The translations under genes and the position numbers were made by a program. A DNA stretch of 64,000 bases from a bacterium (GTDB lineage: Bacteria; Sysuimicrobiota; Sysuimicrobiia; Sysuimicrobiales; Segetimicrobiaceae), in assembly GCA_035691305.1 (NCBI GenBank), contig DASSJF010000038.1, forward strand, positions 3,312 to 67,311, written 5' to 3'. The notes under the pieces are model-generated. The model saw only the letters and a program-made list of their open reading frames with translations, was not told the origin of the DNA and ran no database searches. Of the stretch, positions 32,482-62,020 are shown in pieces (within the stretch, counting starts at the first letter, position 1; each line of letters opens with the position of its first letter).

Positions 32482-33216
32482 CTAGACACCCGCCGCGAGG
32501 CGGCGCGACAAGAGCGTCGGCAGGCCGCGCCGTGCCATCTTCGCCTGCGTCGCGGCGATCGGATAGGCGACGCGGTGGAGCACGGCCTGAAGCCTCGCAT
32601 CGTCGAACACGAGATAGGCGGCGCGGGGATCGCCGTCACGCGGCTGGCCGACGCTGCCGGGATTGATGATGTAGCGGGAGGCGGCGGCGAGATCGAAGGG
32701 CGCCTCGGGAGGCAGCGCCTCGGTCCTGAGGTGCCCGTTCGGATGCCGGGCAAAGACCCCCGCGACGTGCGTGTGCCCGGCGAGACACACGCGGAAGTCG
32801 GCCTCGGCGAATACCGCGAGGGCGGTGGGCAGGTCCAGAATGTACTCCTCGACAGGACGCCGCGGACTGCCGTGCACCGCGACGAATGCCGGGGTGTCGC
32901 AACGCTCGGGCAGCGCCGCGAGGTAGGCGCGGTTGTCCTCGGTCAGCTCCTGCGCGGTCCATTCAATCGCCGCCCGTGCGAGCGGTGAGAACGCCGCGGC
33001 CGCGAGCTGGCCGACCGCGCCGCGATCGTGGTTGCCCGCGATCACCGCTCCCCCGAGGCGGCGCACCCGCTCGACGCAGGCGTTGGGGTCCGGGCCGTAG
33101 CCCACGACGTCGCCGAGGCACAGATATCCGTCCGGCGAACGCGGCGCCGCGTCGGCGAGCACGGCCTGCAGGGCCTCCATGTTCGCGTGGATATCCGAAA
33201 TGACCGCGTAGCGCAC
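32482..33216 (-). CDS. metallophosphoesterase (calcineurin-like, YfcE/MJ0936-type)
   Basis: MRYAVISDIHAN, LGDVVGYG, GNHD, GHTH and VAVHGSP motifs in the canonical order. Confidence 0.85.
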   Translation of the reverse strand: MRYAVISDIHANMEALQAVLADAAPRSPDGYLCLGDVVGYGPDPNACVERVRRLGGAVIAGNHDRGAVGQLAAAAFSPLARAAIEWTAQELTEDNRAYLAALPERCDTPAFVAVHGSPRRPVEEYILDLPTALAVFAEADFRVCLAGHTHVAGVFARHPNGHLRTEALPPEAPFDLAAASRYIINPGSVGQPRDGDPRAAYLVFDDARLQAVLHRVAYPIAATQAKMARRGLPTLLSRRLAAGV

Positions 33217-33228
33217 CGCGCTCGGTTC

Positions 33229-33888
33229 TCAGCGCCTCCGCCGGGCCAGCTCTGTGAAGATTTCGGTCGGGCTGATGCCTTGGTGCACGAGCAGGACGAG
33301 CGAGTGGAACCAGAGGTCGGCGGTCTCTTCCACAAGACGGCGGGAAGTCTCCTTGCGCGCCGCCCGCGCGACTTCCGCGGCTTCTTCCATCACCTTCTCG
33401 TTGAGCCGTGCCACGCCTGCGGTGAACAATCCGGCGGTGTATGAGCCCGCGGCGGGCGCTCGCCGGCGCTCGGCGAGCACGGCGGCCAACTCTGTGAGGA
33501 TCTCGGGCCCGGCCGTCCGCGGGGTCTCCGCGACCGCCCCCGCCGGACCGCCGGCCAGACGGCCGTCGGGCGCGACCGAGCGGAAGAAGCACGAGCGGTG
33601 TCCCGTATGGCAGGCCGGCCCCGTTTGCTCCACCTTCAATAAAATCGCGTCGCCGTCGCAGTCGCCCCGTACTTCCACGACGCGCTGGGTGTGGCCGGAG
33701 GTCTCGCCCTTCCGCCACAACTGCCGCCGGCTGCGGCTCCAGTACCATGCCTGACCGGTGGCGAGAGTGCGCTCGAGGGCCTCTCGCGTCATGTGCGCGA
33801 CCATCAGCACCTCTCCGGTCGCGGCATCCTGCGCCACCACCGTCACCAGTCCGGAAGCGTCGTAGATCACCCGATCGGCGTCGTTCAT
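33229..33888 (-). CDS. hisI: bifunctional phosphoribosyl-AMP cyclohydrolase / phosphoribosyl-ATP pyrophosphatase
   Basis: Trimmed to ATG 33888 (ATGA overlap with the hisF stop). ...[17 protein letters not shown]...[10 protein letters not shown]...CHTG plus a C-terminal HisE helix bundle. Confidence 0.95.
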
Positions 33889-59759: not shown

Positions 59760-60824
59760 ATGAGCAACGGATCAGCCGCGATGAATCGCCGCGCATTCTT
59801 CCGCGCCTTCGGAGGCGTCGCCGCCGGCTCCGCGGCGGGCCTGCCGCTGGCGGCGCAGTTGAGCGCGCAGGCTGCTCCACCACAGATGCCGCTGGTGAAA
59901 CGTGTTGCCGCAAACCCGGCCGCCGTCCCGGCGCCAATCCGCCGGTCGCAGGCCGCGCATCATACCCTCACGCTCACGGCCCGAGAGGTTGTGGCTGAGA
60001 TCGAGCCGGGTCTCAAGTTCCTCTACATGACGTTCGACGGTCAAGTGCCGGGCCCGCTGCTCCGCATCAGGGTGGGCGATACCGTCCAGCTCACGTTCAG
60101 AAATCCGCGCGAAAACCTCATGCCGCATACCGTCGACTTCCACGCGGTCTACGGACCGGGCGGCGGCATGGAAGCGCTGCTGGCCAAACCCGGACAGGAA
60201 AAGGGCCTCTACTTCAAGGCGCTCTATCCCGGCAGCTTCGTGTACCACTGCGCGGTCGCCGACCTCGACTATCACATCGCCAGCGGCATGTACGGGATGA
60301 TCGTCGTGGAACCGGAACAGGGCCTGCCTCCGGTATCGCGGGAATTCTACCTCGGCCAGAACGAGATGTACGTGGGCCAGTCCGCGGGCCCGGACGGCTA
60401 CCGCACCTTCGATTTCGACGCCCTGCTGCGGGAGAATCCAACGCACGTGCTCTTGAACGGACAAAAGAAGGCGGTGACCCCGGACGGCTACGGGGCGCTG
60501 AAAGCCAAGGTCGGAGAGACCATACGGATCTTTTTCGTCAACGGCGGACCGAACTTGACGAGCAGTTTCCACCCGATTGGCAACATCTGGACGAGGGTGT
60601 GGGGCAACGGATCGTTCAGAACCGCGGCGGACGCGTACATGCAGACGGTCACGGTCGGCCCGGGCAGCACGCTGGTGGGCGACCTCGCCCTGCCGGTGCC
60701 CGGATCCGTCAGGCTGGTCGATCATGCGATCACCCGCGTCGTCAGGAAGGGCATGCTCGCGGTGATCGACGTCGCCGGACCCGCTCAGCCGCAGATCTTC
60801 AAGCCATTGACGCCCGGCGTATGA
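59760..60824 (+). CDS. nirK: copper-containing nitrite reductase
   Basis: Tat-type signal NRRAFFRAFGG. Cu ligands in HTVDFHAVYG, YHCAVADLDYHIASGMYGM, FHPIGN and LVDHAI. Confidence 0.9.
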   Translation: MSNGSAAMNRRAFFRAFGGVAAGSAAGLPLAAQLSAQAAPPQMPLVKRVAANPAAVPAPIRRSQAAHHTLTLTAREVVAEIEPGLKFLYMTFDGQVPGPLLRIRVGDTVQLTFRNPRENLMPHTVDFHAVYGPGGGMEALLAKPGQEKGLYFKALYPGSFVYHCAVADLDYHIASGMYGMIVVEPEQGLPPVSREFYLGQNEMYVGQSAGPDGYRTFDFDALLRENPTHVLLNGQKKAVTPDGYGALKAKVGETIRIFFVNGGPNLTSSFHPIGNIWTRVWGNGSFRTAADAYMQTVTVGPGSTLVGDLALPVPGSVRLVDHAITRVVRKGMLAVIDVAGPAQPQIFKPLTPGV

Positions 60825-60841
60825 AAACGGGCGGGACCGCG

Positions 60842-60874
60842 GGCTCCGCGCCCGGCCGCGGCCGGCGCGGAGCC
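60842..60874. terminator. strong GC hairpin shared by convergent nirK and the minus-strand small-gene unit
   Basis: 11-bp perfect stem GGCTCCGCGCC / GGCGCGGAGCC, 18 nt after the nirK stop and about 50 nt after the minus-strand TAA at 60927. Confidence 0.5.
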
Positions 60875-60926
60875 TGTGCTCGCGCCTCCGAAGTCGGAGG
60901 GAAACGACGCTACCGGCCCGCTCGAA

Positions 60927-61199
60927 TTACCGTTGCGGTGGCAGCAATTTCTCGTCTACGAGCACGATCGAAGTGACGGCGTGCCGGCAGACCAGCTCCG
61001 GACCGGCCGGCGTCTCGACGAGGAGGGCATTCAGATCGGCGGCGCGGACGATCACCTGGGAGAGTTCGTAGCCGTCGGCGCACCGCAGATGAACAGGGAC
61101 ACGGCGCGCAACGAGCGCGTCGACAAACGCGCCCGCGTGTGAAAGGTACCCGAGACCGCCGACCGCGACGCCGCACCCGTGGCGTCCGGCGCCGTCCAG
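60927..61199 (-). other. 90-codon open frame with no usable start, continuing in frame past the TGA of the upstream ORF
   Basis: Reads LDGAGRHGCGVAVGGLGYLSHAGAFVDALVARRVPVHLRCADGYELSQVIVRAADLNALLVETPAGPELVCRHAVTSIVLVDEKLLPPQR, then TAA. The first ATG/GTG/TTG comes only at codon 48. Confidence 0.35.
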
Positions 61200-61403
61200 T
61201 CAGCCGGTAATGGCGGGCTGTGTAACAGCCTCCAGTTCGTTCAACCGGCGATCCAGCTCGAGCATGCGGCGCCGGTAGTCCAGTTCGGTGACTACGGCGT
61301 CATGGACGTAGCTTAACACGGGGTCTTCGGCGGCATGCGCAATCTTCTGCTCTTGTTGCCAAATCAGGTCTGCGAGCTCACGCACTACGTCCTTGAGGTG
61401 CAT
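61200..61403 (-). CDS. hypothetical small helical protein (67 aa) ending at the TGA at 61200-61202
   Basis: ATG 61403. MHLKDVVRELADLIWQQEQKIAHAAEDPVLSYVHDAVVTELDYRRRMLELDRRLNELEAVTQPAITG. No family recognised. Confidence 0.45.
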   Translation of the reverse strand: MHLKDVVRELADLIWQQEQKIAHAAEDPVLSYVHDAVVTELDYRRRMLELDRRLNELEAVTQPAITG

Positions 61404-61604
61404 CCTCACGCCCCCCAATTGGTTCCGGCAGCGCCGAACCGAACTCGATAACTCGTAATTCTGTGCGTCGCAGAGATTTCCTGGAATGTTGCGTTATCTC
61501 GTGGTAAGAATTTGGTGAGGTTTTTCGGTCGCCGGCGCAGGCATGACGCACCGCGGCAAGAAATCTTATCGAAACGCGGCGGCAATCAATACGGGAGGCA
61601 GACG

Positions 61605-61937
61605 TTGTCGCATCTCGGCAGTGATTTTTGGCACGACTTCGAAGGGACACGCACCGATCAAGACGTCGCGCTCATCCAGACGATGCGCACTGTGCGCGCA
61701 ATTCGCGGCGCCGACCGTCCGCGCGCCGGCGTTCCGGAGGAGATCCGCGCGGCCCTCGCGCATCTTTGCGCCGCGATGGAGGGCCTGGTCGACTGGATGG
61801 AGCAGGAAGGCGGGACCGACTCCAACGCGATGCAGCTGCTGCAAGACCTTCACCGGGTCGGAGACGGCGTCGTGCGATGCCTCTCCGCGTGTCCCGTCCA
61901 GATAATTCTAGAGAAAGCCGACGAAGACGCCGGATAG
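61605..61937 (+). CDS. hypothetical small protein (110 aa)
   Basis: TTG 61605 with GGGAGG 6 nt upstream. SHLGSDFWHDFEGTRTDQDVALIQTMRTV... Divergent from the 61403 gene. No family recognised. Confidence 0.4.
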   Translation: MSHLGSDFWHDFEGTRTDQDVALIQTMRTVRAIRGADRPRAGVPEEIRAALAHLCAAMEGLVDWMEQEGGTDSNAMQLLQDLHRVGDGVVRCLSACPVQIILEKADEDAG

Positions 61938-61944
61938 CAGAAGA

Positions 61945-62020
61945 TGGCGCGCCCGGAGGGATTTGAACCCCCGACCTACGGCTCCGGAGGCCGGCGCTCT
62001 ATCCGCTGAGCTACGGGCGC
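61945..62020 (-). tRNA. tRNA-Arg (anticodon CCG), CCA encoded
   Basis: 76 nt: GCGCCCG-UA-GCUC-AGCGGAUA-GAGC-G-CCGGC-CUCCGGA-GCCGU-AGGUC-GGGGG-UUCAAAU-CCCUC-CGGGCGC-G-CCA. The cloverleaf folds with one 27:43 mismatch. Confidence 0.95.

Follow-up and report, generated by a model that had tools for sequence, protein, structure and literature searches.

A conserved in-frame UGA codon between a small two-helix protein and an Hfq-like domain in Ca. Sysuimicrobiota: a candidate for programmed stop codon read-through

Organization of the locus

The stretch of DNA analysed here, called the window throughout, comprises 64,000 nucleotides (nt) of contig DASSJF010000038.1 (positions 3,312 to 67,311, forward strand; GenBank assembly GCA_035691305.1) from a bacterium of the Segetimicrobiaceae, whose species recurs in many farmland soil metagenomes and is abundant, for example, in the soils of ENA records ERZ1761208, ERZ1762425 and ERZ1823576. 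Further carriers of the gene include the NCBI MAG with locus tag VFL28_07115, GCA_036704725.1 and the JGI contigs Ga0556628_000881 and Ga0070731_10009887. Its minus strand carries a small open reading frame (ORF), named N-ORF, that is closed by a UGA codon and followed in the same frame by a linker and an Hfq-like domain. On comparative evidence, it appears somewhat probable that programmed read-through of this UGA codon yields two proteins from one gene, the short N protein and an N-linker-Hfq fusion. The locus consists of the following features, given in coordinates of the window:

61203..61403, minus strand: N-ORF comprising 67 sense codons, the product of which, the N domain, is a small protein with two helices; supported by homologues, the ratio of non-synonymous to synonymous changes (pN/pS) and AlphaFold2 (AF2) modelling
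61200..61202, minus strand: in-frame UGA codon, the proposed read-through site; followed by C at 61199 and preceded by a codon of the type NGY (GGC here)
61163..61194, minus strand: conserved post-stop RNA element; alignment of orthologues and covariance model
61131..61199, minus strand: linker of 23 codons from the UGA to helix alpha1 of the Hfq-like domain, predicted to be disordered and without ATG, GTG or TTG; AF2, pN/pS and indels
60960..61130, minus strand: Hfq-like (Sm fold) domain, extension residues 24-80; phmmer, profile, AF2, Foldseek and pN/pS
61053..61055, minus strand: the only canonical in-frame start codon past the UGA, a GTG at extension codon 49, within beta strand 2
60927..60959, minus strand: C-terminal tail and final TAA codon (60929..60927); the tail length differs among orthologues

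According to a preliminary description of the locus, the ORF starts with the ATG at 61403..61401 of the minus strand, comprises 67 codons and stops at the TGA at 61202..61200, after which 90 further codons remain open in the same frame until the TAA at 60929..60927. A direct check of the sequence agreed with both statements and also with the reported perfect hairpin GACGCC-ACGGGTGC-GGCGTC at 61186..61167, which is separated from the UGA by 13 nt (61199..61187). The translation of the N-ORF, 67 codons from the ATG at 61403, reads MHLKDVVRELADLIWQQEQKIAHAAEDPVLSYVHDAVVTELDYRRRMLELDRRLNELEAVTQPAITG. The extension was furthermore said to lack an early ATG, GTG or TTG codon, which is correct, apart from the trivial difference that its first start codon, the GTG at 61055..61053, is codon 49 and not codon 48. 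A start at this GTG (V49) would remove alpha1, beta1 and half of beta2 and is therefore implausible for a folded Sm domain. A check of the TGA had been advised as well; an identical TGA is present in four independent assemblies of the window's species, and a sequencing error at this position is thereby ruled out. The GC content at the three codon positions cannot tell the minus-strand frame from an antisense ORF located at 60876..61142 on the plus strand. Since this measure is uninformative with respect to the strand, evidence from homology was needed.

The extension as a divergent Hfq-like domain

An exhaustive phmmer search over 1.8 billion representative sequences yielded 32 matches to extension residues 24-80 (approximate limits), and the family profile matches Hfq structures of the PDB along its full length with E = 3e-4. 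Extension residues 25-80 score below the cut-offs of the curated models, namely 13.8 bits with Pfam Hfq (cut-off 27) and 13.9 bits with TIGR02383 (cut-off 61.7). The domain is a divergent Hfq homologue and not a model-level member of the family. The AF2 model, calculated with a 20-sequence alignment, comprises a helix at residues 19-32 and strands at residues 35-40, 45-54, 58-63, 66-71 and 75-80, with a predicted local distance difference test score (pLDDT) of >90 for residues 25-80 (approximate limits) and of <50 for residues 1-19. A Foldseek search of the PDB with this model resulted in 50 top hits that are all Hfq proteins, with a root-mean-square deviation (rmsd) of about 1.1-1.4 A over about 61-63 residues. 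The domain thus resembles Hfq/Sm chaperones in the arrangement of alpha1 and five beta strands (rmsd of about 1.2 A to Hfq of E. coli, Pseudomonas and Aquifex) and in the presence of an Sm2-like ...(K/R)HA(I/V)xSI motif, whereas it differs from them by scores below the curated cut-offs and by being, in this lineage, normally the C-terminal part of longer proteins. The extension is confidently modelled as an Hfq-like Sm-fold domain, which may form hexameric rings and bind RNA.

The opposite strand of the same region carries a further feature:

60876..61142, plus strand: antisense 'shadow' ORF of 88 amino acids (aa), regarded as not being a gene; no family matches, substitution pattern

The preliminary description had considered that this plus-strand ORF might be the conserved one. 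In that case, the 88-aa ORF would be the real gene and the minus-strand frame would be open by chance in GC-rich DNA. The plus-strand ORF is annotated in public assemblies of the window's species (called as a gene in L074-L077), and a GC content of 0.79 at its third codon positions (GC3) is compatible with coding. However, it has no homologues and no match in Pfam or NCBIfam, whereas the minus-strand frame has 32 homologues and a confident Hfq fold; moreover, substitutions peak at the third position of the minus-strand frame, and in most relatives the plus-strand frame has not been preserved as an ORF. The probability of a plus-strand gene is considered to be close to negligible.

Selection on the two coding parts was assessed with orthologues from the TGA clade, which comprises 13 lineages (the window, L001, L002, L050, L051/52, L053, L054, L062/63, L064/65, L066/67, L068/69, L070/71 and L072/73). 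The alignment contained 12 complete unique sequences, with L051 and L052 counted separately, and without L001 and L050, which are truncated contigs. The N-ORF showed a pN/pS of 0.27 (95% bootstrap interval 0.18-0.37) and the Hfq domain a pN/pS of 0.52 (0.40-0.64), which was below 1 in all 1000 bootstraps. The substitution rates in the Hfq domain were 0.32, 0.26 and 0.46 at the first, second and third codon positions, indicating a clear codon periodicity. These comparisons indicate that the Hfq part is under purifying selection.

These values also bear on the view that the Hfq frame is a decaying remnant, with an ancestral N'-Hfq gene inactivated by a deletion or nonsense mutation and only N still functional. 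The relaxed pN/pS of the Hfq domain when compared with that of N (0.52 vs 0.27), the substitution of a few invariant positions of the wider family in L051, L068 and L070, and the fact that gene callers leave the region uncalled would be consistent with such a decay. Nevertheless, the pN/pS of the Hfq domain is significantly below 1 while the adjacent linker reaches 0.94, its codon periodicity is clear, neither a stop codon nor a frameshift occurs in 12 diverged sequences, as opposed to non-coding flanks that are full of indels, and the arrangement persists down to an N-ORF identity of about 64%. A decaying remnant is accordingly regarded as very improbable. The recent nonsense mutation proposed in the preliminary description was likewise not borne out: about 27 protein clusters, with identities reaching down to 57%, share the stop, and selection acts on the downstream domain.

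Homologues of the N protein form these about 27 clusters with identities of 57-100%, and nearly all of them have a length of exactly 67 aa. AF2 modelled N as a two-helix hairpin with helices at residues 3-23 and 28-61 (mean pLDDT 83). No fold match to N was detected in the PDB by Foldseek, and the searches of Pfam and NCBIfam gave sub-threshold matches only (SlyX, E = 0.068). At locus L058 (5001-5609), an N-type domain is fused to a hydrophobic, membrane-like C-terminal region of about 135 aa in place of Hfq; the N domain thus combines with different partners.

The divergent, sub-cut-off Hfq-like domain is widespread in Ca. Sysuimicrobiota (formerly CSP1-3) and in metagenome-assembled genomes (MAGs) labelled as Armatimonadota (L003-L049; P0008, P0011, P0017, P0020, P0022 and P0024). 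Scanning a genome collection, of which the window's own species is not a member, with the Hfq profile yielded 47 loci, none of which has an N domain and which represent other architectures of the family. In loci of the L003-L049 type, the domain is usually located C-terminally in proteins of about 400 aa that begin with MPxEVFAEDIERFL. The public gene calls over the Hfq-like domain consist either of an antisense ORF of 88 or 67 aa (L074 5881-6147, L075 5944-6210, L076 6546-6812, L077 832-1098, as well as 4379-4582 in L070 and L072) or of none at all, so that annotation of these MAGs and metagenomes systematically overlooks the domain or labels it wrongly.

Fused and tandem architectures in related lineages

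The N-type and Hfq-like domains occur together in single-ORF proteins of the type N'-linker-Hfq (P0014, P0015, P0019, P0021, P0061 and L056), the linker of which is variable and rich in Pro, Ala and Gly. Since both domains are encoded by one ORF in these relatives, the view that the two halves of the window's locus represent one evolutionary unit is supported. The alternative of two unrelated pieces, as raised in the preliminary description, was abandoned on these grounds and on account of the UGA being conserved along with an intact downstream frame. The UGA aligns with the variable linker of the fused relatives, and no conserved residue stands opposite it. A search for sense-codon variants within the UGA clade brought up, among the matches listed, only P0061, which is of the N'-Hfq type.

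A second architecture is represented by the tandem loci L056, L057, L078 and L079/80, in which a gene for an N'-linker-Hfq protein lies 29-140 nt beyond a standalone N-ORF of 64-67 aa. The N-ORF ends with TGA in L056 and L078, with TAA in L057 and with TAG in L079/80. The N'-linker-Hfq gene possesses its own ATG or GTG; L056 has it in frame 0, and the other three loci have it in frame +2. Additionally, the N-ORF of L060/61 ends with TAG and has no Hfq domain nearby. Where the N-ORF is closed by TAA or TAG (L057, L079 and L060), Hfq is out of frame, encoded by a separate gene or absent, and standalone N orthologues terminate with TAA, TAG or TGA at the same position as that of the window's UGA. 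The sister lineages thus seem to make N and an N-Hfq fusion normally from two genes, and the UGA clade appears to have lost the second N domain together with its start codon, leaving Hfq in frame behind the stop codon of the N-ORF itself.

At one tandem locus (L056, 5001-5810), the standalone N-ORF ends with TGA-CCG, and the downstream N'-linker-Hfq gene is located in the same frame with no stop codon in between. This locus is a possible evolutionary intermediate towards the arrangement detected in the window.

Conservation of the UGA codon, the frame and the linker

The N-ORF is closed by TGA followed by C in 13 out of 13 lineages of the TGA clade, and the codon in front of the TGA is always of the type NGY. 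The next codon is CTG in nine of the 12 aligned sequences, CTA in two (L053 and L068) and CCC in one (L072). All 12 sequences contain the Hfq domain in frame 0 without a second stop, at a distance from the UGA of 69 nt in 11 of them and of 48 nt in L054, which has a 7-codon deletion. The linker therefore contains a single indel, of 21 nt, among the 12 sequences. In the non-coding DNA of the same sequences, 31 gap runs were counted over 139 nt on the upstream side, with 21 that are not multiples of 3, and 21 gap runs over 119 nt on the downstream side, with 16 that are not multiples of 3. This difference suggests that the frame and the length of the linker are under selection. With respect to its amino acid sequence, the linker has a pN/pS of 0.94 (95% bootstrap interval 0.75-1.21), and its distal half diverges at about the neutral rate.

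An in-frame ATG, GTG or TTG is absent between the UGA and Hfq codon 14 in the window, L054, L066/67, L068/69, L070/71 and L072/73, and the linkers of L068/69 and L072/73 are additionally devoid of CTG, ATT, ATC and ATA. Where start codons do exist in the linker, their position is not conserved. Judged from these sequences, independent initiation of Hfq does not appear to be available, reinitiation at a non-start codon being formally possible.

Translation of two cistrons would require exactly such an event, with linker and Hfq domain being synthesized separately by reinitiation or from a non-canonical start near the post-stop codon, resulting in an Hfq protein of about 90 aa without N. Initiation at this point would explain the kept frame and linker length, and CTG does directly follow the TGA in nine of the 12 sequences; however, L053 and L068 have CTA at this point and L072 has CCC, canonical and near-cognate start codons are missing from the linkers of L068/69 and L072/73, and no conserved Shine-Dalgarno-like motif precedes any candidate start. 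The wider family includes Hfq-like proteins without N (P0013, P0018 and P0010), whereas all other Hfq domains of the subfamily considered here are fused to a preceding N-type domain. In the outgroups, N and an Hfq-containing protein do have a cistron each, and a hairpin is located between the two, yet their N-ORFs use TGA, TAA and TAG, and the invariant TGA of the clade would be left unexplained by two cistrons. This explanation is therefore considered to be unlikely.

Further candidates were rejected. TGA is the commonest stop codon in the window, closing 17 of 29 coding-like ORFs (C is the next base in four of these 17), and nirK also ends with TGA; a reassigned genetic code was ruled out, as TGA serves as an ordinary stop. 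Frameshifting is not needed, the domain being already in frame, and bypassing of the T4 gene 60 type was rejected, the take-off codon not being conserved.

A survey of the whole window for other same-frame coding segments that are split by one stop codon revealed nine cases, none of which has TGA-C or is like this locus; they look like ordinary adjacent genes. At 33229..33231 (minus strand) and 32986..32988 (plus strand), which are almost coincident positions, a lone TGA-G divides long same-frame coding-like segments on either strand; this probably represents adjacent genes and a shadow frame.

The post-stop hairpin and the question of selenocysteine

The upper stem of the post-stop element is formed by pairing of 61186..61181 with 61172..61167 and encloses a variable loop of 8 nt, and a possible lower stem of 4 bp (61194..61191 with 61166..61163) would extend the structure to within 5 nt of the stop codon. 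The stem G(A/G)CGC(C)...(G)GCG(U/C)C forms in 12 of the 12 complete orthologous sequences. The upper stem is 92% paired, as opposed to at most 61% when the 3' partners are slid; it contains three invariant pairs and one pair that alternates between A-U, G-U and G-C, and the loop varies freely. The first 42 nt (14 codons) after the UGA are equally conserved at the three codon positions (0.29/0.31/0.29) without periodicity, and the synonymous divergence in linker codons 1-14 is 0.30, compared with 0.56 in the flanking coding regions. These observations suggest an RNA structure at the post-stop element. The preliminary description had cautioned that GC-rich DNA forms such stems by chance, a caution that is justified by the fold of the single sequence (z = -0.94). 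As the stem is kept in 12 of 12 sequences but its fold is not above chance, the significance of the hairpin comes only from the comparison of orthologues.

Searching Rfam with the whole window at gathering thresholds and with positions 60700..61700 at E <= 10 yielded nothing relevant, and a promoter and terminator scan detected nothing resembling a terminator at the hairpin. With a covariance model of the UGA element, only the orthologous sites (61149..61220 in the window) and no further copy were identified in 0.79 Mb of sequence. A different hairpin, GGCGG...CCGCC, is located 6-7 nt past the stop codon of the N-ORF and in front of the N'-Hfq start in three tandem loci (L056 5202-5260, L057 5202-5250 and L078 2266-2297). 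The hairpin of the tandem lineages may be an intercistronic regulatory element and may be ancestral to the hairpin of the window.

In bacteria, the selenocysteine insertion sequence (SECIS) is, to our knowledge, the only mechanism by which a UGA is decoded under the direction of a hairpin immediately 3' of it. The UGA might accordingly be decoded by SelB and tRNA-Sec, with the hairpin acting as a bacterial SECIS (bSECIS), the product being N-Sec-linker-Hfq and termination being the default; inefficient insertion of selenocysteine (Sec) would likewise yield two products. The preliminary description had pointed to a match with the SECIS geometry. The published ranges comprise an apical loop of 3-9 nt, an upper stem of 4-16 bp, a distance between UGA and loop of 16-37 nt and a minimum free energy <= -7.5 kcal/mol (PMC13188914). 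With a loop of 8 nt, a stem of 5-6 bp, a UGA-to-loop distance of 19 nt and local folding energies of -14.6 to -26.8 kcal/mol, the element of the window does lie within these ranges, which are permissive and easily reached by GC-rich DNA; the geometric part of the claim thus stands, without specific support for Sec insertion.

The stem is kept in 12 of 12 sequences, as a SECIS would be, and a G-U dinucleotide is present in six of the 11 tabulated loops, the sequence of which is not conserved. However, the loop sequence differs even among close relatives, as in ACGGGUGC and AGCCCACU, and the stem sequence stays constant, a pattern that is the reverse of what recognition by SelB would imply. In the 6-bp register, the first or second loop position is G in seven of 11 cases; the loop of the window begins with AC, lacking the expected G, and conforms only with an extra inner C-G pair that leaves the loop GGGU.

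Nearly all selenoproteins have homologues with Cys at the position of Sec (PMC13188914), whereas neither Cys nor any other sense codon is aligned with the UGA among the homologues listed. The sense codons considered in the preliminary description for this position (Cys, Trp or Arg) were thus not found, and the aligned site corresponds to the natural C-terminus of standalone N proteins that end with TAA or TAG. The UGA is flanked by a helical hairpin on one side and, on the other, by a linker that is disordered and evolves neutrally, and it is not at a redox site. The failure of the covariance model to find a second copy of the element in 0.79 Mb also speaks against a SECIS, as does the absence of tRNA-Sec from the window and 46 loci, although the latter is a weak argument, only small samples of these genomes having been scanned. 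In summary, the locus shares with bacterial selenoprotein genes an in-frame UGA and a hairpin loop located within 16-37 nt inside the frame (PMC13188914), but differs from them by the missing Cys homologue, the unstructured, non-redox site, the ancestral role of the UGA as a stop codon and the unconserved loop. Decoding as Sec is regarded as decidedly unlikely.

Proposed read-through of the UGA codon

For phages, eukaryotic viruses and animals, programmed stop codon read-through is firmly documented. The locus of the window fits such a mechanism, as far as can be judged from the sequences: the stop codon is conserved, the extension is apparently under selection, the linker is kept in frame and an independent start seems to be lacking. 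Of the two recoding options named in the preliminary description, Sec insertion or read-through, recoding as such is retained and read-through fits better, whereas the emphasis on Sec is not, for the lack of a Cys homologue, the location at a natural C-terminus, the disordered linker and the unconserved loop.

The following sequence of events is proposed. A single mRNA would contain, in one frame, the 67-codon N-ORF, the UGA, the 23-codon linker and the Hfq-like domain. The majority of ribosomes would stop at the UGA and release N, and a minority would decode the UGA, probably by means of a near-cognate tRNA such as tRNA-Trp, and continue past the disordered linker. The product of read-through would be a 158-aa N-linker-Hfq fusion with the expected junction peptide LNELEAVTQPAITG-X-LDGAGR (...AITG-X-LDGAGR), where X denotes the inserted residue. 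One gene would thereby give the same two products that sister lineages obtain from adjacent genes for N and N'-linker-Hfq, at a ratio set by the efficiency of read-through, and the conserved GC-rich hairpin 13 nt downstream may assist the process. We infer the read-through itself, its efficiency, the inserted residue and the role of hairpin and context from sequence comparison.

UGA-C is regarded as the weakest four-base stop signal in E. coli. The putative read-through context of the locus consists of UGA-C, the NGY codon before the stop and the conserved stem, with no covariation in the stem and with both the C and a hairpin also present in outgroups. The influence of the fourth base on termination has been described, and UGA is known to be decoded in E. 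coli by near-cognate tRNAs for Trp or Cys (PMC5373646). A tRNA-Trp with an anticodon stem of 4 bp is able to decode UGA in this species (PMC13092985).

Several points weigh against programmed read-through. All data are comparative, and we know of no hairpin-stimulated read-through in bacteria that is independent of Sec. The hairpin shows no double compensatory substitutions, and its region does not fold better than shuffled sequences (-40.7 vs -37.8 +/- 3.1 kcal/mol; z = -0.94). Outgroups with separate N and N'-Hfq genes likewise possess a C behind the stop codon and a post-stop hairpin; both features may be ancestral to the 3' ends of N-ORFs, for instance as part of an intercistronic attenuator, and co-opted rather than being read-through signals. 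The linker evolves neutrally at the protein level, and its kept frame is equally consistent with initiation right after the stop. The 13 lineages are related, so that 13 out of 13 does not represent 13 independent events. The pN/pS of 0.52 for the Hfq domain is fairly relaxed, and some residues that are invariant in the wider family are altered in L068, L070 and L051. Finally, programmed read-through is rare in bacterial chromosomal genes (PMC5373646).

A literature search revealed no report of this gene family, of an Hfq protein made by read-through or of a structure-associated, Sec-independent read-through site in a bacterial chromosome. Known systems of read-through were compared with the proposed one. 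In phage Qbeta, the UGA of a short ORF is occasionally decoded, resulting in a major short product and a minor extended product, A1, both of which are needed. The window's locus resembles this system in that one cistron specifies a short product and, as predicted from the sequence, a C-terminal extension that adds a domain; it differs in being a chromosomal gene of uncultured soil bacteria, with an Hfq-like extension and a conserved hairpin after the stop.

A second group of signals is known from eukaryotic viruses and animals, comprising UGA-CUAG, UGA-C with a 3' stem-loop and the pseudoknot of murine leukaemia virus (MuLV). The similarity lies in the codon CUG or CUA after the UGA, extending to UGA-CUA-G in L053, and in a stable structure a short distance downstream. 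The eukaryotic signals differ in acting on 80S ribosomes with eRF1, an equivalent for bacterial release factor 2 (RF2) not being known, and the C after the stop is here found also in outgroups without need of read-through. A preprint states that validated human read-through targets have CUAG after the UGA (bioRxiv 10.64898/2026.07.14.738498).

In bacteria, adventitious UGA read-through by near-cognate tRNAs was described by Baggett et al. for nudL and pheL of E. coli K-12 (PMC5373646), and in-frame stop codons under purifying selection were reported by Belinky et al. to be widespread in bacterial genes (PMC7918605). The read-through of nudL and pheL is associated with a weak RF2 allele and has no known function, whereas in the present case a whole conserved domain without another route to expression is concerned throughout a clade. 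More specifically, this clade may have replaced a two-gene operon of N and N'-Hfq by one gene with hairpin-assisted, Sec-independent read-through of UGA at a set frequency, a scenario that we put forward tentatively and with more doubt than confidence.

Genomic neighbourhood of the locus

The N/Hfq frame is convergent with nirK (59760..60824), which was assigned by a match to TIGR02376 with full model coverage (E = 4e-102) and which ends with TGA. An additional feature is located between the two genes:

60830..60886, no strand assigned: inverted repeat with 23-nt arms that are 83% complementary; likely bidirectional terminator, a putative function

The shared hairpin that the preliminary description had placed between nirK and the end of the frame is indeed present as this repeat, between the nirK stop (60824) and the TAA, at a distance of 41 nt from the latter instead of the approximately 50 nt given there. 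In the window's species and in L002, nirK and a 63-aa ORF are situated between the N/Hfq gene and the genes for LysE, DUF5666 and a methyltransferase, which the N/Hfq gene directly adjoins in L064, L066, L070 and L072. From this comparison, nirK looks like a lineage-specific insertion that is bounded on one side by the inverted repeat 60830..60886.

Upstream of the N-ORF, a gene for tRNA-Arg(CCG) is located at 61945..62020 on the minus strand, in synteny with L066, L070 and L074-L076, and a conserved divergent ORF of 110 aa without family assignment lies between this tRNA gene and the N-ORF. Moreover, the motifs TTCC(A)AGGAAAC and (C)GCACAGAAT are conserved clade-wide about 60-110 nt upstream of the N-ORF start codon (about 61480..61500 in the window, minus strand). 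These motifs are embedded in indel-rich non-coding DNA and may represent a promoter or an operator.

Implications

The divergent Hfq-like family of Ca. Sysuimicrobiota and related MAGs escapes standard annotation. The locus described here constitutes a candidate that combines a conserved UGA, an extension comprising a whole folded domain without another route to expression, and a two-gene 'before' state in sister lineages. The short sequence 61230..61125 is suited for reporter assays on the question of whether a 3' hairpin modulates termination by RF2. If the hairpin-assisted scenario is true, the locus would provide a natural case of programmed read-through that is assisted by RNA structure and takes place in a chromosomal gene of a bacterium, documented cases of this mechanism having so far come from viruses and eukaryotes.

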